Of a DNA stretch of 64,000 nt, positions 2,596 to 62,218 are shown in pieces (position 1 is the stretch's first letter; each line of letters starts with the position of its first letter). The stretch is from Vermamoeba vermiformis (taxonomy: Eukaryota). Made by a program: the position numbers and the translations under genes. The stretch covers positions 62,001-126,000 of the forward strand of contig JBEWZL010000066.1 of assembly GCA_045837725.1 (NCBI GenBank), written 5' to 3'. Below the pieces are notes generated by a model. It saw only the letters and a list, made by a program, of their open reading frames with translations, ran no database searches and was not told the origin of the DNA.

Positions 2596-2956
2596 TGCTA
2601 TTTGTATAGCTGTGGAGTGTAGAAATAGATTGGACTATGGTCGTATTAAATTACCGATCACAAATGCGGTAACTGACCCTCTAAAGGAGACGGAGTTGAA
2701 AGTTAGGGTGCACTCCGTTTCTCCGAGTTTGTCAAAATCAAGCTTGTGAGAGCTCGGAAAGCTTCGCCGTTAGCATCAAATAATACCGAGTTGTTTCTTT
2801 GACCTTCTCTGATCGTCTTCATGCTGATGGACAGTAGTTGAACTGCTTCGGCCAAACGGGTGAATCACTTCTTTCTCCGTGTGATTCCTAACCTTAAATA
2901 CTACTCGTGGCACTCTTATTATCTCATTCAACTAATATACAAACAATAGCAACAAT

Positions 2957-3814
2957 ATGTCGACTTCAAAGCAAGTTTATTTCATCACCGGATGCGCAAG
3001 CGGCCTTGGCTACTCGCTCGTGGAACATTTTCTAAAGGCCGGTCAAATCGTCGTAGCTACAGCTAGAGATGTATCCAAAGTCGCTGATTTTGAAAGAAGA
3101 TTCCCGCAAGCTGCTTTAGCCTTGACGTTGGATGTGACCGACAAAACTTCGATCGCTAACGCAATCGCCAAAACGATTGAAAAGTTTGGTCGTATTGACG
3201 TCCTTATCAACAATGCTGCAATTTCTCTCGCTTGTGCTGCTGAAACTTCCAAAGAAGGCGACATCCGCAAAGTTTTCGAAACCAACTTTTTTGGCGTCGT
3301 GTTTTTGACCCAAGCAGTCCTTCCAATAATGCGCAAACAACGAAGTGGCACTATAGTCCAAATCAGCTCGGGACTAGGAATGATTTCTATGCCAGTATTC
3401 TCTTTATACAGCGCTTCTAAGCACGCACTGAATGGCTTTTCTGAAGGTCTCGCAGCGGAGGTCGCCGAACATGGCATTCGCGTCGTCATTGTTGAAGCTG
3501 GATTGTTCAGGACGAAGCTCGCTGACAATTCTATCATGCCTAGCCAAGAGGACATCAAAGATTACGAGGTCGTCAAGCGAACCCTGGGTTACTTTCAGTC
3601 AGTCAGGGGTCAACAACCTGGTGATCCGGACAAATTTGCCGTGGCATTGGACAAGATTCTTGCCTTGGAAAAGCCTCCCGTGCACATTCCTATTGGCGGA
3701 GACTCGCTTCAGGGTATTTCGAAGAAATTCAATCAGCTTTTGAGCGAATGGCAGAACCACACCGAAGTGATCACGTCAACCAACTTCGACAGTTTACCAT
3801 CTACGGCGAACTGA
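2957..3814 (+). CDS. Classical short-chain dehydrogenase/reductase, intronless
   Basis: ITGCASGLG cofactor motif, IDVLINNAA, catalytic YSASK; single 285-aa ORF. Confidence 0.95.
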   Translation: MSTSKQVYFITGCASGLGYSLVEHFLKAGQIVVATARDVSKVADFERRFPQAALALTLDVTDKTSIANAIAKTIEKFGRIDVLINNAAISLACAAETSKEGDIRKVFETNFFGVVFLTQAVLPIMRKQRSGTIVQISSGLGMISMPVFSLYSASKHALNGFSEGLAAEVAEHGIRVVIVEAGLFRTKLADNSIMPSQEDIKDYEVVKRTLGYFQSVRGQQPGDPDKFAVALDKILALEKPPVHIPIGGDSLQGISKKFNQLLSEWQNHTEVITSTNFDSLPSTAN

Positions 3815-26422: not shown

Positions 26423-28352
26423 CTAGTTATAACTAGTGAATATCTTATCTGCTGTCAATTTGAAGTTTGATAGACCAGGATAACGCAACTTTTCAAAGAT
26501 CATCAGCCAGATCTCGTACGGCAATTGTTCGAATACAACTGGATCTCGCGCTATATTGTGGATCAGTATAATAGTGTTGGATAGCATCGATGACTGGTAT
26601 TCAATATTTCTTCGCGTAAATTTTTTGATAATTTCGTTGTTTCTGCACCGAAGAGTGCAATTAGTCAGCTTTCTTATTGACCAATTGTTGAAAGAATTAG
26701 TTAATTTTTCTGTCACGCTCTTGATGAACAGGTCATTATTCTCGACATTTATGCTCAGATCCGTCAACGTGTCATTAAATTTCAACGCATCCAAGACGCT
26801 ATCAACTTCTTCAATTTTTGAATGGTAATGCAACTTGACTAACGTAGTATTGTTTTTAATTATTTCTGCAATATTGAAGCTTTCTTTATCAGACGCCGTA
26901 GATTCATCGCCGAATGCTATTCTTTTAAGCTGAGTACTTTTCGCCAACCATCGTTGCATCACTTTCAACGCTTCGCTCGAAAAAATTGTTCTTTCGAATT
27001 CAATGACCTCTAATGATGTGTTGGATTCAAATGCGAGTGCTATAGGCAGTGTATCTCCCGTATGAAGTCTGAATAATTTTAGATCTAAAATTTTCAATGC
27101 GCAATATCGATCTTTGAGCGCTTCAGTGAACGGTGAAATTTCCAACGGATGTTGCAAGACTGTGTCGAAAGGAAATCTGTTAGTTCTGTAGCGAGCAAGT
27201 TTTAATTCCTGCAATAGTTTGTTTTGTACGGTGCCATTCAACAAAATTTCGATTGCTTGCTGCGATAGTCCCGCGACTGCCATGTGAAATTTCTTGATCG
27301 ATTTGCTTTGCTGAAGTCCGTTGCATACCGATTGAATATTTGCAGGCGTTATGACGCTGCTCGGTGTAATTTCAATGTCTACGAAGGTTAATGACGGGTG
27401 ACACGCGAGAACTTCTGCCAGCCTGTCAAAAGTGTCATTTTCACAACGAGAGCGGCTGATTTGCAGAGTTTTTATCGACGTATTGTTCTTGATCGCTGAA
27501 ACTATCTTAGTATTTGAGTTTGATATATGCAAATTTTCTATTGAATTATTCGCTGCAAACGCGTCTTGTAAAAATTGGTCGTTTTCGGAAATCAGTCCGA
27601 CGAGTGTCAGATCTGTAACGCTATTTCCAAAGCTGCACGGCTGATTGATAAAACAATCCATAGATAATGACTCTAGCGTGGTATTTTCGGATATTCCGTC
27701 ATAAATAAACTCCGTATTGATTTTTCCTTTGTTCACCGGATCTGGCTTTGGCGATGTCGCAAATAATCTTCGAATTGACTTGTTATTTTTCAACATTGAT
27801 GAAACTAGTGCTGAATTTTCCTTGTTTAATCGGGTGCAACCATGAGTCAATTGCAATTTTGTGATACTCGTACTGGCTTCAATCGCATCCAACACGATCT
27901 TCAAGTGTTCGCTGTCACAAAGTGCAATATCGAGGATTTTCAATAGCTTATGGTTATATATGAAATGTGCAAGCGCTTCTACTTCAGCTCTAGTCTGAAA
28001 TTGATACAAAGTCACTTCTAAGCTTTGAAGATCCGACTTTAACAGCTGATCGACAGATCGGCAGAATCTGGTGACCGAGGGATCACGTGCAATCAAGCGC
28101 AATTGATTCTTGTCAATATGCATTGCGGTAAAAGATTCGACTTTGCCAAAGACCACGTAAAATTGTTTGATCCCGAAGGAAAAATACTAAATTATGAAAT
28201 AAATTAGAATAATTATTTGAATACTACAATAATTTTGGAATTTATCTTCTCACCTCCTTACAAAGTGTACAGAATTTTAGTCTTCGTTTGATACTTATTG
28301 AAGTATTGTTGCAGATCGGGCACCGATTGAATTCTGGAAGCTCAAAACTCAT
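26423..28352 (-). CDS. RNI-like LRR protein with N-terminal CxxC..CxxC and C-terminal F-box-like motif (paralog 1, intact)
   Basis: Exon 1 MSFELPEFNRCPICNN...CTLCKE, one intron, long LRR exon (LKNNKSIRRL, ESNTSLEVI), ending LPYEIWLMIFEKLRYPGL. Confidence 0.85.
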
Positions 28353-28501: not shown

Positions 28502-30493
28502 TCAATTCTTATTATTAGAGGTAGTCGTTCTGAATATCTTATCGGCTACTGATCTAAAGTTTGGTAGACCAGGATAACGCAACTTTTCAAATATAATGAG
28601 CCAGATCTCGCGAGGCAATCGTTCAAATGCGTTGCTGTCTCGTGCAATATTGTGGATTAATACTATCGTATTTGACCACATTAACGATTGATATTTTATG
28701 TTCCTTTTAGTAAATTCTTCAATGGTGGTGTTGTCAAACAAATGCTGGTGATTCGTCAATTTTCGTAATGATTTGTTAGTTTCAGAATTCCCCCAGTTTA
28801 ACAACATTCTTTCAATTAATTCCTGTTTTGAAGAGAAATCCGTGAATAAATCTGTCGAATTTTCAAATGCTATCGAAGCGTTTGTGAATTTCTTTGTCAC
28901 GCTCTTGTCGAACAAGTCATTATTCTCGGCATTTATGCTCAGATCCGTCAATGTGTCATTAAATTTCAACGCTTCCATGACGCTATCAACTTCTTCAATC
29001 TTCGAGTAGTAATGCAGCGTCGTCAATGTCGTATTGTTTTTGAGAATAGCAGCTAGGTTGATACCATCTCCATTTTCTTCGAATTCGTTACCAAGTTTGA
29101 TGCTTTTCAAACGAGGGTTTTTGACTAGCCATCTTTGCAGCACTTTCAATGCTTCGGAAGAAAAACATGTCCGCTTCAAATTAACGTCCTCTAATGATGA
29201 ATTTGCTTCCAAAGCGAGTGCTAATGATAATGTACTGTTTGTATGAATATTGCATCTGTGCAGATCTAATTTCTTTAACGCACAAGAAGGACTTTTGAGC
29301 GCTTCAGTGAACGGTGAAATTTCCAACAGTCGTTCTGGCTGAACACAAAGTTTCAATTCTTTTAGTATTTTGCTTTGTGTGGTGCCGTTTAATATGCATT
29401 CTGCAGGTTCATCATCTAGTGGGCAATGCCAGTGAAATTTCGTTATGGATTGACTTTGTTGAACTCCATCGCAAAGCAATTGAATATTTGCAGATGTTAT
29501 TAACGAAAATGTAGAAATCATATCTAGTGCCACATATGACAATGACGGATGACATTTTAGAACTTGTGACAGCGTGTCAAAAGCACTGTCGTCAAATTTT
29601 GTTCGGACAACTTCTAGTTTCTTTATCGATGTGTTGTGTTTGATGGCTGCAATAACTTTCAAATATGAGTTCGTTATTTTAAGATGTTGAATAGACTTGT
29701 TGGCCGTGAACGCGTCTTCGAGGAATTTTAGGTTGGCAGATCCGGGCCGAACCAAGATCAACTCTTTGATGCTGTCACCGAACCTGAATGGCCTATTACT
29801 TGTACCATCAATAGTGAGTGACTTAATCGTTGTATTTTCGGATATTCCGTCGTAAATAAACTCGGTGTTGATCATTCGTTGATCGGATCTAATTCTGTTC
29901 ACTACTAATCTTCGAATTGACTTGTTATTCTTCAGCATTGACACTACTAATGCGGCATTTGCCTCGTTTAATTGCGAGCAACCATTTTTCAATCGTAGTT
30001 TGCGAATACTGCTGCTCGTTTCAATCGCATCCAACACGATCTTCAGGTGTTCGCTGTCATAAAGTTCAATATCGAGGATTTTCAATGGCGTGTGGTTCGA
30101 TATAAAATATGCTAGTGACTTCATTTCCTCCGCGGTTTGAAAGCAGCTTAACGACACTTCTAAACTATCCAAATCTGACTTGCGCAGCTGATCGATCGAG
30201 CGGCAGAATTTTGGAACGTGGATATTACGAGAAATTAGGCGTAATTGGGTACTTCTACCTCCTACTGCGGTAAATGATTTGTTTGAGCCATAGACGAGGT
30301 GAAATTGCTTGTTTCCAAAGGTAAAATACTAAAATTATAAATAGTGATTAGAATAATTAATTAAATATGGTACGAGTGAATAGCCATTATACCCACCTCC
30401 TTGCATACTCTTGCATAATTTCAAATTCCGTTCACTTGTCAAACTATTGTTGCAGATCGGACACCGTTCGAGCTCAACTTCCAGAGAGCTCAT
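28502..30493 (-). CDS. LRR paralog 2; apparent extra base at about 30411 in exon 1
   Basis: Same two-exon layout as paralog 1. Removing one A gives CRVCKE and restores the phase-0 splice; 556-aa open LRR ORF. Confidence 0.8.
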
Positions 30494-30680: not shown

Positions 30681-32563
30681 ATGATGATCTTTGAACCAGT
30701 TCAATTGACGAATTGTCCGATCTGCAACTGTTGTTTTCCAGATTTGACTCTTGCAAACGGAATTTATTTATGCACGAAATGCAACGAGGTAAGAGAATCA
30801 ATTAACAACTGAATTTTATCATAAATAATTGAATTATTCATCTTTAGTATTTTCCTCGTGGATACAAACAATTTGATGCTCTTTACGGGAGCAACCTGTC
30901 GTTTACAGCTTCAGGGCTATATATGGCTTTGCAGTTGAACTCACCCCAGATGGTCGAAAAATTTTGTAAATCAAAAGATCAGCTGCTAAAGTCCGATCTT
31001 GGTCGCGTGGATGTGACGCCAAGTCACTTTCAAACGAAAAAAGACATGGAAACACTTGCACATATTTTAATGCACCATAAGCCATTAACTGACGTCAAAA
31101 TTACACTAGATAACAGCGAACACTTGAAGATCTTATTGGATGCAGTTGCAGACAGTCCCAATATTCGGAAATTAGAGCTTAATAATGGCTGTACTGATCT
31201 AAATGAATATAATGCCGCCCTTGTTCGTTCAATGTTGCAGAATAACAAGTCAATTAGAAAATTATTGGCTCAACATGACAACACGAAATCGAGATTTATT
31301 TTTGACGGGATATCAAAAAATACTAGCCTAGAAAGCATAAATATCAATGATAGAATAGATAGTCCAATTATATTCAGCGACAGCGTTAAAAAATTGACAC
31401 TAGTTGGTGGATACAAACCTGGATCAGATTTCAACGTTGAATTTTTACGCGATGCCCTGGCTTCTAACAAATCGATACACTATTTAAAATTGATAAAATC
31501 GCATTTGAAACTCACTTCAGCCATCTCCGGAAACACATCCATCAAGCGACTTTGTGTTTTCCAGGACAGTATGAATAATAATGACGAAGACTTAGTCAAA
31601 TTTTCGCAAGCATTGAAAGACCATCCAACATTGACCGATGTATCACTTCAAAACGAGCCTAGTCACAGTAGAGAACGCTACTAATGCTATGCAATGCAAT
31701 CATAGAAAGCAAGCCCATAATCAAATTTGAAGCACACGCCTTCGCATCCAGCGACATTTTGGCAGTTTTTTTGAACAAATTAGTACCAAGTCAACGTTTG
31801 ACCGAATTAAAAGTCCGAAATTCATCGACCTTAACGAACCCTGTGGAAATTTCAGCCGTTCACCGAAGCGTTGAAACATCGGTACTGCTCGTTGAAAGTG
31901 TTAGACCTAGAAAATGCTTCTTTCCCCACAGACAATACTCTATCATTAGCACTTGCATTAGAGGCGAATACATCGTTAGAGGTCGTAAATATGAAAGACA
32001 CTACTACTTTTTCGGATGCGGCGCTGCAAGTGATGCAACGGTGGTTGGCAAAAAGCACTCAGTTAAAAAGCATCAAGTTTGAAGCACAACATTATAAGAG
32101 TTGTGATAAATTAGATCTAGCAGCTATAATTAGAAACAATACAACACTTGAAACTCTGCATTATTATCGAAAACGAAAAACTATTGACGATATCCTGGAT
32201 GCGCTGTCAGTAAATGACACTTTGACAGATTTGGCAATAAGCACTTCTAAAGAGGATTTTACGAAGAAAATTGAAGAAAAAATAACACCAAACAACTGGG
32301 CTATTAGGAATTTGTTTAATGCAGACTATTTTTCGTCCGACGACATTATCAGCAATTTAACAACAAGAAACAAACAGTATCAATCTGCAATGCAATTAAA
32401 CACGATTATTGTCATTCATAATATTGCACGAGACAAAGATTCATTCGCACGATTGCCTCGCGAGGTCTGGCTCATTATATTTGAAAAGTTGCGGTATCCT
32501 GGTCTACCAAACTTCAAATTGACAGCTGATAAGATATTCAATAGTTACAATACGAAGATATAG
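30681..32563 (+). pseudogene. LRR paralog 3, divergently oriented, two frameshifts (about 31680 and 31855); pseudogene or assembly errors
   Basis: Exon 1 CPICN...CTKCNE; coding region split over three frames; TCAGCCGTTC versus paralog TCACCGTTC shows an extra G. Confidence 0.7.
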
Positions 32564-32652
32564 TGTTAGATCGAAAGAAATGAATGTAATAAAAACCGGG
32601 TTTTTCAAAGATCTTGATCTGTGACACGTGTCAAATTTATTTAACCCTGTTT

Positions 32653-35600
32653 TTAGCCCTGTTTGACAACACGCTGTGAAATAATGTTGCTATGACATAC
32701 TAACAATTTTTCTGGGAACGGCTTCAAGTCGTAGATCTGCGGCACACCAAAGCCAGCAGCTTCGAGGACCTTATTGTACCACTCATTAGAATGGACTTTG
32801 CCGCTTTGAGTCGTGACCAGCATCGCCACGGACAACAAATTGGCGTAGAGCTGTGACTGCGTGTCATCAAATTCCATCTTAATAGTCTCGGTTAATACGA
32901 CACGACCGGTCGGTTTCAACGAGTCCAAAATCTTCTGCATCAACTTTTGCGCGTCGTCCTTATTCAAGTAGGCAAGACAATTTCTATGAACATAGGCACG
33001 TTAATAATAGGTCCCGGTGTTAATATGATGATATGAAAGGACTCACCTTCCGACAATTATCAAGTCATAAGGACCTTTGAAATCTGTCTCGAACAGATCG
33101 CCTTCAATGTAACTCGTTTGATTTGCTATGCCCATTTCTTCCGAATTCTTTTTACATTGTTGAATCATCTCTGAGGACTCCTATATTCATATCATTAGCT
33201 TCATATTATGTGCGATTAGTATAAAATTTGTCACGTACAAAAGACACTACTGTCGTGCCAGGTTTTTTCTGAGCCAGAGTGTAGCCCACAATACCATTAC
33301 CGCTATAACTCGATTAGAATATTATTGAAATCTCATTAAAAAGTACGTACCACATCAGATCGAGTACATTAATGACTTTTTTGTGAGCACGCCAAGGTTT
33401 AAGAACTTCTTGCAACTGCACGGCCATGTGTTTTTGGACTGCAAAAATATCGTTAGATTTAATTAAATTTCATAATATTATAATTCTGTTATTTTAGTCT
33501 TACTTGACACAGGCTGCTGAGGGTGATTTTGCATGGTCAAACCTTCAACTTGATTTTGACCGTTCTGAACCGACTGAGTCAAGAACTTCATGTTGTTCCA
33601 GATCGCACTCTCGCCGAGCGTGAAGCACAAATCACCGACGTATCCAGGCAAGCCCTCGACCTAAGCAATAATTAATCTGGATGACCTTACTGAGTTGAAT
33701 TGTCTGTGCTCACCAGGTGTGCCAAAGAGATGTCAGTGAGCATGAAAATGTCGCGCTGACTGCTCAACAGACCGATGGAAGTCAGTGCGTTCAAAATACG
33801 AATCAACGCGTTCAAATCACAATCAAGTGCCACGGCCAGTTGTGCTGCATTGGCCTTGTAATCAGGACGTGTCTGCAACTCTTTAAAGAGGCCCTGTAAT
33901 AATACACCGTTAGCTACAAGTCACTCATTCACGTGATATTACGTACGAGTTTCAGCGCAGTGGAAATTACAGCGGTCACTTGGAACGCCTGGAACATGGC
34001 GAGAAGTTCGGTCGGTGTAATCGCCACGGAATCAACGACTCGCAGCGATGATTTGGTCTTGTACACGCCTCCAGTAGCAATGCCGAGTTGATGGATCAAG
34101 AACGCGTATTGGAAGGCAGTACCGACGAACGAACTGTAACGACCTGACGCGCCCATGTGACCAGAGTGGTAAGTTTTAAGCAGCAGAAGATTGGTGTCTG
34201 TTTTGTTGGCACGCAATCGAGCGACAGATTTCGTCGGCTCCCAGAAACTGACGCGAGGATCGTTGATACCGCCCGTGATGAGCATGTGAGGGTAATTCTT
34301 TTTGCCAATGTTGTGGTACGGAGAGTACTCGAGCATGTACTTCAAATAGTCCTTTTGATAAGGGTTGCCCCACTCGTCATATTCGTAGACAGTCCACTAA
34401 ACCAAGTCAATTAGCACTGCCGTACAAGGCTAATATTTTCGAGTCGACTTACGGGGACTTTAGGGTCACCAAGAGCGCCAATTACGTCACAAAATGGTAC
34501 GTCCGATAAGACTACTTTGAACAGATCCGGTCGCAAGTTCGCCACAGCTGTCACGAGCAACCCTCCTGCACTACGTCCAAAGATACCTAGTTGATCAGCG
34601 GTCGTGTACCCTTCGTAGATCAAATGCTCGGCACACGTGATAAAGTCGTAAAAAGTGTTCATTTTGTGCAGTCCTTTGCCTTGTTCGTACCATTTCCAGC
34701 CGTTGATGGCTGAGCCACGTGGGTGGCAATACGCGTAAATGAACCCTCGATCGAGCAAACTTAATCGTTCGAGCGAAAACTTGGGTCCGCTCAGCTCGCC
34801 GTAGGCACCATAACCGCACAAAAGCTAATTGAAAACTCAAAATTAGTTTCCTTATTTGGTAATATGCGAAAGTCGTACCATTGGATTTCCTCCCTGATGA
34901 TTTCTTAAGGAAATTTTGTAGACTAGTGTAATCGGAATCTGTCCACCGTCCTTTGTAGTAGCCCAAATTCTTTTTTGATAATAATCTTCACGCACGAATC
35001 CAGTAGCAAACGACTCCTTGACTTTCCTTTTTTGGCAATTATCCATATCGTAGTCATAGACGATGGTTGGTTGCAAGAACGAAGTGTAACTGAATCGCAG
35101 TCTGTTCGTGTTGAAATAACGCGTCGCAAGAGTATCTTCTTGGTCTTCAACTTCTCCCGGCCAAATGCAGTACAAAGGCTCCGTAAAGTTAATGTAATGG
35201 ACCTCTGTGCAACCCCAAAATTAAAATTGAAATTCTTGGAATAAAAATAAAATGCGTACCTCCGTCGGAAAGATCTTGAATGCGCACTTTTTGAGTTCCG
35301 CTTTCCCATTCCCAGACTACAAAATGATGGCGGAAGAGTTCAATGTCTTTAATCAACACGTCTTCGCGGTGCTCGAGAATAGTTTCCCACAGGTCTCTAT
35401 TCATTGGATCACTTACTGGCACCTTAATAACTACGCAACAATCGTTATTAGTACGCTATAACAATCAGTAGATAATTATCAAGAAACTACAACGAACATT
35501 GGTCATCTGAAAAAATACAAGATGCGATCCAATCCGATCGCGAACCAGAACGACAACGAAAAAATGAGAGGAATGTGAATAATAATTTTAAAAAATCCAA

Positions 35601-37827
35601 TAATACCAATTCCACCACTTTCATTTTATCGCTGCATACCTTTGAAGTTGTAGGCTCCGCCTTCGTTGGTCTTAATGTACCAATAGTTTCCGTGACTAGA
35701 AACTGCGTACTGGACACCTTCAGTACGACCCATAATCTACCATAACATTAATATGGCACTAAAGCCCGGAAAATTGTTGACTACTTACGGGTTGAAAACC
35801 GGCCTTAGGTTGGTTCGTCGGACAGTATCTGACTTCCTTCGTAATCTGGCCTTCAATATGAAGCAAGAAATACTTCTTATTGTTGGATAAATTGATTTTA
35901 AGCACAAATCTCTCGTCCGGTTCTTCGTACAAAAGTAAATCGTCCGTGCCTTCGGGATGGTTTTCGTTGATGGTGTGACAATACAATTGATACGCACGAC
36001 CTGTAACTTTGTCCAACTATAACACTACGTGAGTATAATACGTTCATATAAATACGATATTAATATAACGTACCTTAGTGTACAAAAATGTGTTGTTATC
36101 AGCCGCCCAACGCAAGGTCCAGCCAACATCACCAATATCTTCCTCCAAGAGCAAACCAGTCGATAAATCTTTGCAAAAGACTCTAATAATGGCACGCACG
36201 TTTAAACTAATTGCCTAATAAGTAAACTAATTAACGTACCTGAATCGTTCGTTACCCTCCGTATCAGTTCCGTAAGCCAACAAGTTATGATTCGGCGAGA
36301 CTTCAAAAGGTCCTAATTGATAGTAGTCCTCTCCCTTAGCCTCCTCGTTCTCATCTAAGATCACTTGTTCCATGGCGTGATCGGGATTATCGTATTTTCG
36401 ACAGTGCACACTGTACTCTTTTTCAACATCGGATCTGCAACCACGTGGTTAGTTTTGAGTGATATTTCGGATGATATTTATAGCCCGTACCTAGTATAGT
36501 AATACCAATTATCGACTTGTAAATAAGGACTACGATCGTCACCGCCAACACGGCCAGAGAACTCATCGTAAAGCTGATCTTGTAACGCTTGGGTATGGCG
36601 CATCATCGCCCTATAATTTTAAATAAGCATATAATATTATTATAAAATTATTTTACGACTTACTTTGCATAAGCGTTCTCTTCTTTTAAATACTTGGAGA
36701 CTTTTGGATTATTGAGATCACGCATCCAGTTGAAAGGATCGCGGACTTGAATATCATGCTGATCAAATACAATTTCTTCTTGTTCCGGTGCTTTTGGCAC
36801 GACATTTAGATTGACGCTGCTCTCGCGTCGTTTCTTCTCGTGTTTTGGCTGTGTAGGCATAAGATCCGCCTCCTCTGATGTGCGAATATCCATGTTGTTA
36901 TGTCTAAAATATATTATTAATAATTTTGCATAGATTATGTGCCTTAGTATTGGATTTATATCGGAATAAAATGACAGATGGAGATCTGCCGGGTTGAAAT
37001 TAATTAATTTAAATTAAAAATAATATCCTTCGTGATGTATAATAAATAGATGCCGTGGATTATGTTTTAAAGGCCCGTAGTTTTAATTTAAAATTTGTCC
37101 GGATTAGCATCCGATCTATTTACCAAAGATCAGACCGGAGTTGGCCTTTTTGAAGAAATATAACATATAAATTATGCATACCTTTTATTATCAAGGTGGT
37201 CGCTTAACTACGTATTCACAGAGAAGTTTTGCAGGATCTTCAATCTGAACTAACGTTATGGGCTCAATTTTCAGCAAGGTCGATGAATGTAGCTTGCAAA
37301 TAGACCGAAGCTACGTAGCACTTGTTGCTTCAGTCTTTCTAACTAAGAATTAAACGGAGATAAAACCAGGACAAATTTTTCTATTTTCAATTTCTCCGAG
37401 CATCAACCAATACAAACGGTTTTCACTGAAAACCTAACAAGCCGCTAACATTTTTTTGGGGATTTTGGAAAAAAAACAAAATCCGTTTTCCAATTAGGAC
37501 AGACGCGATTACATTACGAAAATAATACCACAATAAATCGTTTTAAAACGTCGTTTATTTATTTTCTGTACTACAGACAGAGACAGCTTGTTTAGGAAAC
37601 TTACCTTGGATTCGTGAATTGCTACATCCGCCTCGGCATTCCCATTGGTTGGAATCTCATTAACCTATCGTTAAGTTAGCATTTAAGATATAATAGGAAA
37701 ATCTCAAAAGGTGGAAGAGAAAATCAAGATCTGTTTTGATCGCGATCTAACGCAGAAAAGATGTTCGATTCTGAACTTAATTGATTAGGATTTTCAGTAC
37801 CTTGGCCATGACCTCGCATATCTCCAT
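32653..37827 (-). CDS. Oligopeptidase B (S9A) fused to a C-terminal class I SAM O-methyltransferase (dimerisation + Methyltransf_2-like); start uncertain (36893 or upstream exons to 37827)
   Basis: RDPFNWMRD, GYGAYG, GRSAGG, NDPRV, GHMG; the same exon continues into AFQVTAVISTALKL|GLFKEL, followed by VLDLMCGNG, IEGDLF, GPYDLI, LKPTGRVVL. Confidence 0.9.
35463..35609 (+). repeat. About 145-bp copy of 42109-42257 inside an intron (35431-35639) of the peptidase gene
   Basis: Shares aatcagtagataattatcaagaaa and catctgaaaaaatacaagatgcgatccaatccgatcgcgaaccagaacgaca exactly. Confidence 0.95.
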
Positions 37828-38220
37828 CTCTCTGATATTATCCGCCACAAACCAAGGCTCACTGCAGTCTCCCTGCTCGATCCAAAGATCCGAATCCACG
37901 CGACCCTGAAAAGTCAGAACGAACAAAGAAGAGAATAAATCTTATAGGGAGTATATGTAATATTATATTCTTCGACATAGCAATAATTTGGATGGCTTTA
38001 ATTTGCTGGATTTTCTTTTGGCTTGCGGCATTTTGAGCGTAATGATTTTTAGCTTAGATGGTTGATTTACTGAATGAATTTGACAATAAATTAATTTACT
38101 CGATTTATTACAAAGGAATTTTGAATGGTTTTTTGGTATTTTGGGTTAATTTTTCGATTTTTTTTTCGGTAGTAGGGTTAAATCCGCAAGAATATCAAAC
38201 TTTCAAAGGGAAGGATAACG

Positions 38221-40040
38221 TTAATAAGTGAATCTATTGTTACCCATTTGTTGACCCATCTGTTGTTGGTAAGCTTGCTGCTGTTGTTGGTAGTACTGTG
38301 CTGCGTAGTTCGGATCGTAGGCCTGTTGGTATTGTTGGTAAGCAGCGGTAGCTGTCTGAGGCATTTGATAGCCTGCATAAGCTTGAGCTGCTTGTGTGTA
38401 GGCTGCGGTACTCGCCATAGAGGGGTACGCAGAAGCTTGTTGCGAATAAGCCTAGAATAAGACAAGAAAAGTTAGGAAATGTTGCAAGATCCGATCGGAT
38501 TCGGCACTTTGAGACTCACCTGGTAGGATTGGTTAGCAGTGGCTGGAGCGCCCGTTGCACCTCTGAACGGTCGTCCCCGGCCACGTGGTCTGCCACCAGA
38601 GCCCGAGGCTGGGCCGTATGGCTGGTAGCGGGTTTGAGGGTAATTTGATTGGGGTTGAGAAGGGTACGCGTTGTTGTAACCACCGCGACCCATGTTCATG
38701 CCTCCTTGTTGCATGTGACCGCGCATTTGACGGGTGTTGGCGGTCTTGTTTGGTGGAGGAGGCTTGGCCAAGACTACTGCCAGCTTTTGACCAGCAAAGT
38801 CTACGTCGTTCATGTGTTTCAACGCGTTCAAGCAGTTGTCGCGTTCCTTGAATTGTACGAACGCAAAACCTCGGGGCTCACCGGTATATACGTTCTTAAC
38901 AATAACACTCTACAAGGAGAAAGTAATTAGTCAATTTATGAACTTTTTGGGATGCGGATGGAGCAAATCTAGCTTACCTTTACAACTTCACCGAATTGCA
39001 TAAACAGTGACCGCAGCATCTCGTCGGTTACTGTAGTGGCGATGTTGCTAACGTACAGAGTGGTAACTTTCTCCATAATGCTCTCGTCGATTTCCTACAA
39101 AGCCAAAATTAGATCTAGCGCAACGGTAACTTTTTTTGATCTGGTCAAAAACTATGTTTGCGACGCTTACCCTATTGATGTTTTCAGCCCAAGAAATGTT
39201 CAAAGATCGTCCTTGAATTTGTGATTGCATCAAAATTTTCTTAGCGGCTTCGGCTACCTCGTGTGTAGGAAAAGTGACGAAACAAAATCCACGCGATTTG
39301 CGCGCGGGAGGAGGGCCGGTCTTCAATTCGACTCTAAAATCGGTATTTAGGACTGCTAACAAGCCTCTCAACGATTCGTGAACTTGATTTTCGCCCATTT
39401 CAATGGGAACGTTGCCAACGAAAAGTGTTAGTTTCGCATCAGCAGATTTGACTCTGCAAGGTCTACCCTAATTATTAAAATAATAATAATCGTTAGTAAA
39501 ATTAACCGGGATGATGTCGAGCATTGAGATCGTGTTACGGGCTCGTAATCTTTCTGCTATAATTTTTCAGGTCCAAATCAATTTCGAATGCAACGAACCT
39601 TTATAATAGAATTGTTGTATTCAGGAGATAAAGCTTTTTGCTGTGCTTCTCGAGTACCAAAATGAATAAAACCGTATCCTAATTCCCGAAGAAAAAAAGT
39701 AAAACTTTCAGTGACTTGATCTAACGATTATATGATTTGCGATAATTGGGGCAATTATCGAATACGTACCTTTGCACAATCCAGTGGCACGTTCTCTAAT
39801 CACGTTTACATTAACAATTTCTCCACAACCAGAGAATCTCTCACGAAGATCGTCATCCGTTACTGTTGGAACCAGGTCGCCGACAAATACGTTAAATGTA
39901 GCAACGGTGTTACTAATATTAATGGGTAAGAAATTTGAATTAAATCGAATTATTACGGCGCTCAGAAAATAAATTTACCTGTTTCCGCCGGTGTTGTAAT
40001 CTCGGATGTTTTGATCGTCGTCAGAATGTTGATCGCTCAT
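38221..40040 (-). CDS. Triple-RRM RNA-binding protein, hnRNP R/Q (SYNCRIP)-like, with RGG and Y/Q/A-rich tail
   Basis: VFVGDL, KGYGFIHF, KLTLFVGNVP, RGFCFVTF, LNISWAE, TLYVSNI, RGFAFVQF, AVVLAKPP; 3' end approximate. Confidence 0.88.
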
Positions 40041-40279: not shown

Positions 40280-41430
40280 AAAAGCTTTATTTACAGGGGT
40301 CGAAACAATGCGCCTGACGATAAATTTACATGGTTTTCACGTTATTTTCTATATTTCCGCCATGTGTTCCTCATTCGCATAGCTAACTGCAGATCTATTT
40401 TCAGTAATTAGCAACAAAGCCCAAAAAATTCAAATCAGCAACAAACGGTACTAATATACTAATATATGATATTCAGTAATTACCTCGAGGAGTTAGCGTT
40501 ACTCTTTTGCTAAAAATTGCAGCTAAATTGGCGTCTTCAAATAATCCAATTAACCAAGCCTCTGAAGCCTCTGTAAATAGTATTAATACAATATGTGCCG
40601 CAATATAATAGATGAGATAAAGAAAATGATTACCATGCAAGGCTTGTATTGCGGAGGATTGGAACCTCAGATCCGTTTTAAATTCTTGCGCTAATTCTCG
40701 AATTAGCCTCTGGAATGGCAATTTTCTTATCAACGGTTCAGTTGATTGTTGATATTTCCTAATCTCTCGCAGCGCAACTGTGCCTGGTTTGAAGCGGTGA
40801 GGTTTTCTGATTCCAACATCTGGTTGAGCTTTATCTTCCGTTTCCTTAGAACTTTTAGCAGCCACTGTCTTACGAGGAGCCACACCTCCTGTTGATATTC
40901 GCGATGTTTGTACCATTCTCGGAGCATTTATGGTCATTTCTAAATAAAGAAATAAAGTTACTCGAGCAAATCTACGGAGACAGTTAATTTTGTGGTGATC
41001 TTACCTCCCATTCTGTTTTCTATATTATCTTATCATCTTCCTCATCTTCTTCGTCTTCTTCATCGTCAAAATCACCTTCTAAAAGAGAATGTTCGTTACG
41101 ATCTTGATCGACACTTCAACAAAGACAAACGTACCTTCGAGGTCAACTTCAACAGTATCTTCTTCATCTTCACTAAATTGGTCTGGCTCTGATCGGAAGG
41201 AATAAATACAAACAATTTTGATATTTTAATGTAATTCGTTTTGTTTTACAAAGCCAAAAAAATCCAATCGACACAAATAAAATGAAATCGAGTATTTTGA
41301 AGTTATAAAGGCACAAAGTAACCATAGGTAATAAAGTAAGATTTATTGGAAATTGTAATTTAATTCAGATCGAAGATTCTTTGCTTACCTTGCTCTTCAT
41401 CAGGAGTCATCTCGTTTCTGACATTATTGT
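40280..41430. repeat. Left arm of a 1.15-kb inverted duplication (partner about 44990-46160)
   Basis: tttatttacaggggtcgaaacaatgcgc (40286-40313) is the reverse complement of 46124-46151; exons and introns are collinear. Confidence 0.92.
40342..41424 (-). CDS. Divergent histone H3 variant, copy A, with acidic upstream exons (1-nt deletions near 41031 and 41415)
   Basis: [34 protein letters not shown]...[38 protein letters not shown]. Confidence 0.88.
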
Positions 41431-61923: not shown

Positions 61924-62218
61924 ATTGATACAGTACTATTTACATGTTCATTAATCGATAATACAAATGATTTTGAACCGAAATAAACGCAGTACAAATC
62001 TCTGACATCAGAAATTTCACCAATTTTCTTTTGTGCGTTGTAACACAATGCTCTGCCTCGTTAATTTAGCTGCTATAATACATGCCATAAACGCAGATCG
62101 ATCCTGCCCAAATGATTCGTATCCCTTGAAGCCGATTTTTAATTTTATTTTTCGTTTTGGCAACGTTGCCAAAATTAATGACCAAGCCACCATTTTAATC
62201 TTCATTTGGCAATCCGAA

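Follow-up and report, generated by a model that had tools for sequence, protein, structure and literature searches.

Two questions are raised by this locus of Vermamoeba vermiformis: whether a peptidase and a methyltransferase that appear to share a reading frame are one protein, and what such a protein would do. The window analysed here, a stretch of 64,000 nucleotides (positions 62,001 to 126,000 of contig JBEWZL010000066.1), had been read from its sequence alone as encoding, between 32653 and 37827, an oligopeptidase B (OpdB) fused in frame to a small-molecule O-methyltransferase.

A single gene spans both domains

The fusion gene lies on the minus strand and has 16 coding exons, with a CDS running from 36893 to 32653 and a product of 1083 amino acids. 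The 16-exon model reads through 1083 codons to a single terminal stop (TAA, 32655-32653), has no stop inside, and is colinear with three full-length fused homologues by tblastn, including P0002 and P0003. Its 15 coding introns are all GT-AG and measure 48-65 nt, except one of 209 nt. Within the range first proposed, 36894-37827 is not coding sequence of the fusion protein because the CDS begins at the ATG at 36893; an in-frame TAG precedes this ATG in the upstream exon of the mature transcript. The 3' end of that non-coding first exon (37182-37213) is marked by X1 and X4 contigs whose loose ends at 36905 match 37184-37213 exactly. It is followed by a GT donor at 37181-37180 and a 278-nt GT..AG intron in the 5'UTR (36904-37181), supported by the sequence and the contigs.

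Coding exons 1-8 (34879-36893: 36893-36664, 36610-36491, 36434-36240, 36182-36074, 36016-35789, 35736-35640, 35430-35260 and 35204-34879) code for the Peptidase_S9_N beta-propeller, preceded by an N-terminal extension of some 40 residues, as placed by the gene model, Pfam and tblastn against P0002 and P0003; all seven introns between them are skipped in X1 and X4. Exon 9 (34453-34824) carries the first half of the Peptidase_S9 catalytic domain, and exon 10 (33947-34396) is the junction exon, holding the rest of the peptidase active site, the peptidase end, the linker and the first methyltransferase dimerisation helix. The remaining Dimerisation domain and the lid region occupy exons 11-12 (33504-33893: 33893-33714 and 33660-33504), with both introns skipped in X1. 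The donor of exon 11, GTGAGC at 33713, yields AHL|VEGLPGY, matching the homologues. Exons 13-16 (32653-33438: 33438-33351, 33302-33239, 33180-33047 and 32983-32653) encode the lid helix with an invariant His882 and then the Rossmann methyltransferase domain; their introns are skipped in X1, and in X4 where it provides coverage.

The junction is read in frame and transcribed

The peptidase His motif was said to run without a stop into a methyltransferase helix, and this is borne out: the stop-free frame 33929-34396 on the minus strand reads ...SGHMGASGRY...AFLIHQLGIATGGVYKTKSSLRVVDSVAITPTELLAMFQAFQVTAVISTALKL. The in-phase splice to GLFKEL is also confirmed, across a 53-nt intron whose GTACGT donor lies at 33946 and whose AG acceptor ends at 33894. 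The motifs named in the sequence-only reading are all present: GRSAGG (residues 575-580), NDPRV (661-665), SGHMG (694-698), VLDLMCGNG, IEGDLF, GPYDLI, RNCLAYL and LKPTG. In the gene model the peptidase ends at AFLI, residue 717; solved OpdB chains stop four residues past the aligned position. The linker that follows is about 27 residues long (residues ~718-744, 34013-34093), is matched by no Pfam family and shows partial conservation across the fused proteins. In pairwise comparison, the linkers of the five fused proteins in which it is intact are 27-82% identical; pairs with P0006, whose linker region runs into an intron, give 0-18%. The AF2 model of P0003 has a pLDDT below 50 at P0003 residues 744-759, within its linker, and the linker is probably flexible.

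Spliced contigs from two runs, each of a different study, skip the predicted introns at their exact borders (15/15 in X1, 12/15 in X4). These are assembled contigs, in which overlapping transcripts can be merged, and the RNA nature of the runs is a guess from the index; two raw RNA runs yielded no reads. The three remaining X4 introns fall where X4 depth is little or nil. X4 record 7 spans 34207-33946, where it takes in the codon for His696, the linker and the methyltransferase's first helix, and it continues for 16 letters into exon 11; X1 record 1 starts at 32651, crosses five introns and reaches about 34027. The contigs differ from the window, as related strains do, at 64 positions, 40 of which were listed and scored. 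Among these 40, 37 are synonymous, with synonymous to non-synonymous counts of 22:1 in the peptidase, 3:0 in the linker and 12:2 in the methyltransferase, which indicates purifying selection on each of the three parts.

The fusion could in principle be an artefact, either a misassembly or read-through of two adjacent genes, or a gene whose real product is the peptidase alone through retention of intron 10. Merging of overlapping transcripts during contig assembly would allow the former, and a retained intron 10 would bring in a stop at 33931-33929 and end the protein at ...LKLVRNIT. Against this, there is no stop or frame shift between peptidase and methyltransferase in the window sequence, the junction is crossed by spliced contigs from both runs, no intron-retaining contig is found among the contig pieces listed, and all three listed linker differences are synonymous. 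The same junction also occurs in independent transcriptome ORFs of Cavostelium and Entosiphon. We consider an artefact highly improbable. Gene model, spliced contigs and homologues together identify a real, transcribed and conserved in-frame fusion, and we are very confident that it is translated as a single frame.

The fusion is conserved in distant eukaryotes

P0002, a Trinity transcript of Cavostelium apophysatum (1104 aa), and the proteins P0003 and P0004 each exceed the Pfam cut-offs for Peptidase_S9_N, Peptidase_S9, Dimerisation and Methyltransf_2. P0152, a transcript of Entosiphon sulcatum, has the same domains and an additional N-terminal D-Ala-D-Ala-ligase-like ATP-grasp domain. The Cyanophora paradoxa gene model P0248 stops just past the linker and ...DLIRMFQGFQTT, and by sequence the fusion is probably present in Cyanophora too. 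In the tree, the peptidase domains of the fused proteins group as a single clade (SH-aLRT 98; 8 of 56 rows). The fusion persists in Amoebozoa, in a euglenid and, probably, in a glaucophyte. The sequence-only reading named no earlier example of such a fusion. Our literature search likewise found no paper on an OpdB-methyltransferase fusion, but public transcriptomes contain the architecture as well, and it is not confined to this genome.

The peptidase half is a complete oligopeptidase B

Judged by its sequence, the N-terminal part of the protein (717 residues) is a complete oligopeptidase B of MEROPS family S9A, with a predicted beta-propeller and alpha/beta-hydrolase domain. Single exons match Peptidase_S9 with E values of 3e-18 and, for exon 9, 1.4e-32, and Peptidase_S9_N is matched as well; the full domains of the homologues score E 1.6e-87 and 8e-57 (P0002) and 5.8e-90 and 5e-61 (P0003) for these two domains. 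The catalytic triad is intact, as had been proposed, and consists of Ser577 in GRSAGG (34572-34570), Asp662 in NDPRV (34261-34259) and His696 in SGHMG (34159-34157), of which the Asp and His align to the triad of Serratia OpdB. The best solved relatives are all OpdBs, from Serratia (7zjz, E 2.7e-29), T. brucei (4bp8) and L. major (2xe4), with values ranging to 5e-24; prolyl endopeptidase is a much weaker match (E 6e-8). The EYDEWGNP motif is the same as in Serratia OpdB, and E621-Y-D623 (E621 34384-34382, D623 34378-34376) aligns with Serratia E576-Y-D578. In solved and studied OpdBs this pair is located at the site that receives the substrate's Arg/Lys side chains, and in Salmonella OpdB the pair Glu576/Glu578 reportedly gives the Arg/Lys specificity. 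The fused clade carries GRSAGG and GHMG or GHLG, versus GGSAGG and GHGG in the two free-standing OpdBs shown.

An analogy had been drawn between this peptidase and the RiPP maturases POPB, OphP and PCY1, which are of the prolyl-oligopeptidase type. The analogy is weak given that the window peptidase is OpdB-type (E 3e-29 versus 6e-8 for prolyl endopeptidase) and not of the prolyl-oligopeptidase type.

The methyltransferase half lacks the catalytic histidine

From its sequence signatures, the C-terminal module is COMT-type, with a Dimerisation domain and a putative class I Rossmann domain. Exon 11 alone matches Dimerisation (PF08100) with 23.6 bits (E 4.6e-5), below the cut-off of 25.6, where the homologues reach 43-52 bits; exon 16 matches Methyltransf_2 (PF00891) with 31.5 bits (E 1.4e-7). 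The predicted SAM-binding motifs are kept: motif I, LDxxCGNG (LDLMCGNG, 33364-33293, across intron 13), an acidic residue after strand 2 (Glu930), xGD (IEGD) and, beyond GPYDLI, Glu1006. Motif I, the acidic residue (D/E) and Glu1006 are invariant in all six amoebozoan-type fused proteins, among whose modules 68 of 338 positions are invariant. The Entosiphon copy keeps 43 of these 68, many of them in the dimerisation domain, yet its motif I is degenerate (CAGD) and its strand 2 is not followed by an acidic residue. At least one lineage therefore retains the module with a SAM site that is no longer intact, which speaks for a structural function that does not depend on SAM.

The catalytic His is missing at RNCLAYL, as first noticed: Ala978 (32973-32971) occupies the position, and its Glu partner, E1006, is kept. 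By these residues the window methyltransferase is a member of the fold and family and not a canonical O-methyltransferase. The His is absent from all seven fused proteins and present in 12/12 free-standing relatives. Across the fused proteins the position reads A (window), N, S, S, S, N and S, and this variation means that no substitute catalytic residue has been fixed there. A role as a sensor had been suggested as one possibility from the missing His, but this does not follow, since several COMT-type enzymes without it are active. According to the RedM paper, DnrK, SibL, DsyB, RosA and PhzM also lack the catalytic His, and RedM S253A retains activity (PMC10784701). Among solved structures, 2r3s, RedM and DsyB come closest both in sequence and in fold. 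A Foldseek search with the AF2 model of P0126, a homologue 44% identical to the window's methyltransferase module, returned E values of 6e-24 to 2r3s and 9e-23 to RedM over 329-341 columns.

A two-copy prediction of P0126 scored 0.68, versus 0.01 for the best of three controls, although COMT-type dimers have already been solved and the score may merely reproduce those known structures. The dimer mark is reached by 21/30 proteins solved as pairs of one and the same chain and by 0/23 solved as single chains; on eukaryotes it is reached by 17/29, yet by only 1/7 of those without an older solved relative. The P0126 runs agreed in at least 73% of contacts with a pLDDT of at least 85, and the predicted interface includes residues 10-33, the post-linker helix. 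The AF2 model of a full-length homologue (pTM 0.67) has a low-confidence linker and does not indicate docking of the two active sites.

Possible functions of the fusion protein

The sequence-only reading offered two roles, an enzyme that cleaves and methylates in peptide maturation or a peptidase regulated by SAM or a ligand, and either may hold. We propose that the methyltransferase module would homodimerise through the helix immediately after the linker, so that two peptidase units would hang on a central methyltransferase dimer. The peptidase would be an active trypsin-like oligopeptidase acting on short peptides. The methyltransferase would bind SAM and act without a general base on an N, S or carboxylate nucleophile, as in RedM, DsyB, PhzM and RosA, or might instead use the clade-specific invariant His882 of its lid helix. 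As substrate it would take a short basic peptide, or else a cleavage product that the attached peptidase handles; an amino terminus freed by cleavage, comparable to the target of LcsG, would be one example. We assign this whole reading, in which the base-independent methyltransferase is active and linked to the peptidase, including SAM-dependent methylation and a peptide substrate, a probability of about 0.4. Against it speak the varied residue at the catalytic-His position, the degenerate SAM site of Entosiphon, the polyketide setting of the closest free-standing relatives (below), the AF2 model with no docked active sites, and the lack of any neighbour suggestive of a peptide pathway among the window ORFs scanned.

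It may instead be that the module is non-catalytic, a dimerisation scaffold still able to bind SAM or SAH, leaving the peptidase as the sole enzyme; the module might then couple peptidase activity or stability to cellular methyl-donor status. The uniform loss of the His, the unconserved residue in its place, the retention of the degenerate Entosiphon module with so much of its dimerisation domain, and the post-linker helix at the core of the predicted P0126 interface (a prediction that may only reproduce solved dimers) are all consistent with this. However, the SAM motifs, for which a pure scaffold would have no need, are invariant in the other six fused proteins, the module is under purifying selection (12:2), and the known COMT-type proteins without the His are mostly active enzymes (PMC10784701). 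We regard a scaffold as a plausible but tentative explanation. That both halves are active, the methyltransferase on a small non-peptide metabolite, with the fusion serving merely for co-expression, co-localisation or dimerisation, we think unlikely. Such a substrate would suit the close solved methyltransferase relatives, which all use small molecules, and the free-standing relatives closest to the fusion (31-33% identity). The latter lie in actinomycete aromatic-polyketide clusters, with a polyketide cyclase directly upstream in 9/14 sampled loci and aromatic-ring hydroxylases also adjoining, a setting that suggests small aromatic substrates rather than peptides; no S9 peptidase or ATP-grasp gene lies within 8 kb in any of 42 free-standing-relative loci. 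OpdB is, moreover, joined to many unrelated domains (alpha/beta hydrolase, chorismate-lyase-like, DUF5686). Mere co-expression fits poorly with a fusion retained as a single clade over Amoebozoa, a euglenid and probably a glaucophyte, and with the clade's own changes in both halves (GRSAGG, GHMG and the His loss), which suggest co-adaptation. Around the fusion gene itself, the ten adjacent ORFs gave Pfam matches to SDR, RRM, histone and, weakly, TPR, with six lacking a match, and none of the window ORFs scanned looked like a precursor or a biosynthetic gene.

Comparison with known systems

Free-standing OpdBs (Serratia proteamaculans 7zjz and 7ywp, T. brucei 4bp8, Leishmania major 2xe4) have the propeller, the triad and the EYDEWGNP pair in common with the fusion protein, which adds approximately 365 residues of linker and COMT-type module. 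In the other OpdB fusions, with CarbopepD_reg-DUF5686 (P0169), Abhydrolase_1 (P0157) and a chorismate-lyase-like domain (P0155), OpdB is likewise one module of a larger protein, but the partner differs and none has a methyltransferase. The His-less COMT-type proteins RedM (8tji), DsyB (7wdq/7wdw), PhzM (2ip2) and DnrK share the fold, motif I, the acidic residue and the Glu with the fused module, and the catalytic-His position is Ser in RedM and Phe in DsyB. Identity to solved COMT-type relatives is only ~20-22%, and the fusion's module, unlike theirs, sits behind a peptidase. The closest solved chain, the uncharacterised Nostoc protein 2r3s, keeps the His (FLHHF), unlike the fusion module.

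The OphMA methyltransferase of the omphalotin pathway has a fold different from the COMT-type module. As described in two papers, the omphalotin/borosin pathway resembles the fusion in pairing a methyltransferase with an S9A-family serine peptidase, the peptide N-methyltransferase OphMA and the peptidase OphP making one product (PMC12235650, PMC7878506); OphMA and OphP are, however, separate proteins, unlike the single-chain fusion. LcsG of Purpureocillium lilacinum, a Methyltransf_2 protein, methylates N rather than O, at the free terminal amine of a peptide, and its proposed catalytic residues are Asp (PMC11193748). LcsG differs from the fusion in being fungal, free-standing and active on a non-ribosomal peptide, and is likened to it by that description only, yet it offers a precedent for the terminal-amine methylation step of the proposed mechanism.

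A single gene spans the peptidase and methyltransferase frames

The minus strand between 32653 and 36893 carries a series of stop-free frames that encode first the propeller and catalytic domains of an S9 peptidase, then the dimerisation domain of an O-methyltransferase and a Rossmann methyltransferase domain. A model of 16 coding exons was derived from the window sequence with tblastn matches of fused homologues as a guide. All 15 coding introns are GT-AG and measure 48-65 nt apart from one of 209 nt, many contain a CTAAC-like branch site, and the joined frame comprises 1083 codons with a single terminal stop. The junction exon (34396-33947, minus strand) is stop-free from ...NDPRV through SGHMGASGRY and AFLI into HQLGIATGGVYKTKSSLRVVDSVAITPTE and then LLAMFQAFQVTAVISTALKL, and splices in phase to GLFKEL across a 53-nt intron with the donor GTACGT.

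The junction exon and motifs are correctly described in the sequence-only reading. The gene limit of 37827 proposed there is wrong. The coding sequence begins at the ATG at 36893, with an in-frame TAG ahead of it in the mature 5'UTR, and a 278-nt 5'UTR intron (37181-36904, minus strand) separates this exon from a non-coding exon ending at 37182. The short minus-strand frames with GT donors at 37500-37830 (MEICEVMAK followed by gtactg, and ...AIHESK followed by gtaagt), previously counted into the gene, sit upstream of the mapped 5'UTR exon; transcript mapping covered the window up to 37100.

Spliced contigs cover the junction in one conserved frame

A read-index search with a stretch of the fusion gene revealed twenty runs sharing parts of its words, none of which reaches half. 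The assembled Logan contigs of two sequencing runs from two studies, X1 and X4, are spliced and 95-99% alike to the window. Two raw RNA-seq runs (X21 and X22), which share the species label of X1, yielded 0 aligned reads and carry no weight either way. All 15 predicted introns are absent from the X1 contigs, with borders exactly as predicted, and 12 of the 15 are absent from those of X4, the remaining three falling where X4 depth is little or nil. X1 record 1 (1066 nt) extends from the stop codon to approximately 34027 within the linker, across five introns. X4 record 7 (34207-33946) reaches from upstream of the codon for His696 (34159-34157) over the last part of the peptidase and the entire linker to the first helix of the methyltransferase, and its terminal 16 letters are the start of exon 11. 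The evidence from both runs consists of assembled contigs, and their RNA label was guessed by the index; the exact absence of the introns from the contigs points to a cDNA origin. A processed DNA copy is an unlikely source despite the guessed label, because the introns, 15 in all, are missing in two runs whose sequences diverge from the window by 1-5%, chiefly at synonymous positions.

We classed on the gene model the 40 listed differences, out of 64, between window and contigs. The peptidase contains 22 synonymous and 1 non-synonymous changes, the linker 3 and 0, and the methyltransferase 12 and 2. The total of 37 synonymous against 3 non-synonymous changes indicates that one frame running through peptidase, linker and methyltransferase is under purifying selection among close relatives. 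A stop near 34080, which the sequence-only reading had named as evidence against the fusion, is not among the listed differences, and those at 34028, 34055 and 34073 are all synonymous. The whole fusion protein is encoded in one reading frame on one mRNA. Misassembly, or two separate genes behind the apparent fusion, was considered and rejected, and we regard it as highly improbable that the fusion is an artefact.

The same fusion occurs in other eukaryotes

Searching longer proteins with the junction exon returned 1215 matches at E <=0.001. Four of the 120 listed (P0001-P0004) match the exon over 100% of its length with 53-54% identity, and contain S9 and Methyltransf_2/Dimerisation domains, while the other 116 are ordinary OpdBs or OpdB fragments with exon coverage of at most 90%, mostly 67-77%. 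P0002 is a complete Trinity ORF from the variosean amoeba Cavostelium apophysatum, and P0003 and P0004 are Logan proteins of 1114 and 992 aa. Each of these three has all four domains above Pfam cut-offs and aligns end to end with the window model, with identities of 55-65% for the peptidase and 37-40% for the methyltransferase. When proteins of 612-1950 aa were searched and scored on the methyltransferase part only, six were found, namely P0002-P0004 and three bacterial proteins. The bacterial proteins (P0149-P0151, e.g. from Burkholderia; ~915 aa) join an adenylating AMP-binding domain to Dimerisation and Methyltransf_2 domains; their module shares 26-29% identity with the fused methyltransferase, and they represent another fusion of this methyltransferase subfamily.

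An exhaustive profile search of 1.84 billion representatives gave 28,919 matches, and one protein among the best 150, P0152 (1419 aa), matches across both modules. This Trinity ORF of the euglenid Entosiphon sulcatum has an extra N-terminal ATP-grasp domain (residues ~139-329) related to solved structures of D-Ala-D-Ala ligases (E 2.4e-10), so that its domain order is ATP-grasp, OpdB, Dimerisation, Methyltransf_2. The window gives no tblastn match to P0152 residues 1-350 even at E 10. A 445-aa gene model from the glaucophyte Cyanophora paradoxa, P0248, stops right after the linker and ...DLIRMFQGFQTT, and for that reason probably represents this fusion in an incomplete model. P0154, from Phalansterium solitarium (Variosea), is an N-terminal fragment. 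The proteins P0006 and P0126 are both reported on one 12848-bp Logan contig, where homology of the former ends after ...RHL and the latter begins within the linker; they are probably halves of another fused gene, split by an intron within the linker. A metagenome scan with P0001 found 3 loci, which are considered ordinary OpdBs because all match the peptidase part only (residues 1-127). The architecture search proposed when the fusion was first noticed recovered the same OpdB-methyltransferase fusion in the Cavostelium and Entosiphon ORFs and in P0003 and P0004.

Other C-terminal partners of OpdB were also seen: Abhydrolase_1 (P0157), an Rv2949c-like chorismate pyruvate-lyase (P0155) and CarbopepD_reg with DUF5686 (P0169). 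None of these three fusions has a methyltransferase domain.

The peptidase-domain tree was built by IQ-TREE quick search under LG+G4 from 56 rows, 8 of them fused or presumably fused and 48 free-standing OpdBs (the twelve closest, and every third protein of 640-760 aa among the best 150, the others being left out). All 8 fused rows of this 56-row tree lie on one side of a branch with SH-aLRT 98, and Cyanophora and Entosiphon are outermost among them. The window groups with Cavostelium and Phalansterium (SH-aLRT 94) with no resolved order among the three. The fused clade has GRSAGG and GHMG/GHLG, compared with GGSAGG and GHGG in the two free-standing OpdBs shown. Judged from the peptidase domain, the OpdB-methyltransferase fusion arose once. 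On the evidence of this single gene, the source of the window is probably an amoebozoan belonging to Variosea or close to it.

The peptidase half is an OpdB

The closest solved relatives of the peptidase are OpdBs, those of Serratia proteamaculans (7zjz, E 2.7e-29), T. brucei (4bp8) and L. major (2xe4), whereas prolyl endopeptidase reaches only 6e-8. Asp662 and His696 align to the Serratia OpdB triad, Ser577 lies within GRSAGG, and E621-Y-D623 aligns to Serratia E576-Y-D578. We take the acidic pair at E621/D623 to be the site that sets the P1/P2 preference for Arg/Lys, as in Salmonella OpdB. Fused proteins have E/E or E/D at these two positions, with Cyanophora (E/S) and Entosiphon (D/R, in HDTREW) as exceptions. 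Free-standing OpdB ends 4 residues past the AFLI position, so the fusion extended an enzyme that was otherwise complete. All sequence features tested place the peptidase half in the OpdB family.

The peptidase is OpdB-type and does not belong with the prolyl-oligopeptidase-type maturases of RiPP synthesis (POPB, OphP, PCY1) cited in the sequence-only reading. Neither a precursor nor a biosynthetic cluster was seen among the neighbouring ORFs scanned. Pfam identified only SDR, RRM and histone domains and a weak TPR match among these neighbours, and six ORFs had no match. The short-chain dehydrogenase at 2936-3814 (plus strand; adh_short, E 1.4e-52) and the core histone-fold gene at 40473-41000 (minus strand; Histone, E 6e-29) are ordinary neighbours. 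A gene for an RRM-domain protein whose C-terminal tail is rich in Gln and Tyr (QQYQQAYDPNYAAQYYQQQQQ...) occupies 38221-39467 (minus strand), just upstream of the 5' exon of the fusion gene. Convergent with the fusion gene at 30848-32563 (plus strand) are overlapping frames, probably several exons, of a leucine-rich-repeat-looking protein that has an F-box-like LPREVWLIIFEKL stretch at its C-terminal end; its first frame was scanned and gave no Pfam match. Directly downstream of this gene, two minus-strand stop-free frames of 587 and 608 aa (26423-28186 and 28502-30328) have no Pfam match at E 0.001.

The methyltransferase half keeps its SAM motifs and lacks the catalytic histidine

Among solved chains, the methyltransferase is closest in sequence to 2r3s, an uncharacterised protein of Nostoc punctiforme (E 2.4e-21), followed by DsyB/DSYB, RedM, DnrK, PhzM, MfnG, MmcR and ASMT. 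An AF2 model of the P0126 module, which is 44% identical to that of the window, has a pLDDT of 87.5 and a pTM of 0.83, and its fold ranking places 2r3s at the top (E 6e-24, TM 0.77-0.83), then RedM, PigF, MfnG and DsyB. The ESM Atlas returned generic bacterial Methyltransf_2 clusters only, each scoring 0.96. The six amoebozoan-type fused proteins retain motif I (LDxxCGNG), the acidic residue that follows strand 2, xGD, GPYDL and the Glu in ...VVLxE, and their modules are invariant at 68 of 338 positions. On the strength of these motifs, the SAM site of the module is intact. In the Entosiphon module, motif I reads CAGD, strand 2 is not followed by an acidic residue, and the SAM site may have been lost.

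The absence of the catalytic His suspected in the sequence-only reading was borne out. Ala978 occupies the aligned position in the window, and the seven fused proteins have A, N, S, S, S, N and S there (His in 0/7), while the His is present in 2r3s and in 12 of 12 free-standing relatives (LHHF in eleven, LHG in P0138). According to the RedM paper (PMC10784701), this His is normally the proton-transfer residue in the COMT-type family, DnrK, SibL, DsyB, RosA and PhzM are active enzymes without it, and RedM retains activity as S253A or S253C. On that account, loss of the His predicts non-canonical chemistry and does not predict inactivity. His882 in the lid helix is invariant in all six amoebozoan-type fused proteins, has no counterpart in the free-standing relatives, and is found two columns away in Entosiphon. 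It is a candidate substitute base, which we offer only as a lead.

The nearest free-standing relatives (31-33% identity) are actinomycete, and 42 of their loci were found. Of 14 sampled loci, 9 have a small ORF immediately upstream, and the four of these ORFs that were scanned are all polyketide cyclases; an aromatic-ring hydroxylase is nearby in 6 of the 14, with a match for each of the three scanned. These neighbours indicate that the ancestor was a small-molecule O-methyltransferase. No S9 peptidase or relative of the Entosiphon-type ATP-grasp domain occurs within 8 kb at any of the 42 loci, and hence no prokaryotic neighbourhood links the two halves.

Predicted architecture of the fusion protein

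The full-length AF2 model of P0003, based on a 48-row alignment, has a mean pLDDT of 86.2 and a pTM of 0.67, and pLDDT falls below 50 at residues 744-759 in the middle of the linker. The model suggests two well-folded modules on a tether; it does not predict their mutual orientation and gives no information on docking of the two active sites. A homodimer test with two copies of P0126 scored 0.68 compared with 0.01 for the best of 3 controls, with contact agreement of at least 73% and pLDDT of at least 85 across runs. The predicted interface takes in residues 10-33, the post-linker helix that the window encodes on its junction exon. Of proteins solved as pairs of one chain, 21 of 30 reach the homodimer mark, against 0 of 23 of those with a single-chain structure; among eukaryotes it is reached by 17 of 29, and by only 1 of 7 that lack an older solved relative. 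As COMT-type dimers have been solved before, the score shows likeness and not binding.

Discussion

We propose that the fusion protein would dimerise through its methyltransferase module, that the peptidase half would be an active oligopeptidase with Arg/Lys specificity, and that the methyltransferase half would bind SAM. What the module then does is a matter of several readings. We assign a probability of roughly 40% to an active, base-independent methyltransferase working on the substrates or products of the peptidase. This reading draws on the retained SAM site and the many active relatives without the His, on a fusion long kept with co-adapted motifs, and on the addition in Entosiphon of a peptide-bond-forming type of domain. 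A precedent for the fold is the Purpureocillium lilacinum Methyltransf_2 enzyme LcsG, for which PMC11193748 describes peptide-amine methylation. The same SAM site and His-less relatives would have to be explained otherwise if the module were a non-catalytic, SAM-binding dimerisation or sensor unit, which we rate as slightly less probable than the first reading, given the variable residue at the His position and the degenerate SAM site of Entosiphon. Ancestry in polyketide clusters would fit an active methyltransferase with an unrelated small-molecule substrate; we judge this unlikely.

If the module is active on peptides, the fusion might be a self-contained "cut-and-cap" protist enzyme, in which OpdB would cut after Arg/Lys and the tethered His-less half would methylate the product at the alpha-amine or the carboxylate newly formed by the cut, or at a basic side chain, yielding a stabilised or signalling peptide. 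The ATP-grasp ligase added in Entosiphon would then allow ligation, cleavage and methylation on one chain. We hold this scheme tentatively and consider it rather doubtful. Were it true, it would be the first enzyme to unite a serine oligopeptidase and a methyltransferase, and would give Amoebozoa, euglenids and glaucophytes a way of making methylated peptides.

OpdB is well studied in bacteria and trypanosomatids, and its physiological substrates are poorly defined. A conserved, expressed fusion of OpdB with a SAM-binding module is a "Rosetta stone" clue, suggesting that OpdB cooperates with methyl transfer or SAM status in some eukaryotes. Activity on peptides would make it a peptide-modifying enzyme of a new kind, and a compact cleave-and-methylate tool; a pseudoenzyme would clearly exemplify a COMT-type fold that has been turned into a dimerisation or ligand-sensing module of a protease.

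Our literature search revealed no publication that describes a fusion of OpdB or POP with a methyltransferase, although supplementary tables may list such architectures. The main text of a survey of prokaryotic POP architectures (PMC4522959) contains the word "methyltransferase" 0 times. The fusion family extends over at least two, probably three, eukaryotic supergroups and is a conserved, expressed domain combination new to the literature searched. By fold and SAM site, the window module is a member of the COMT type, from which it differs in lacking the catalytic His.
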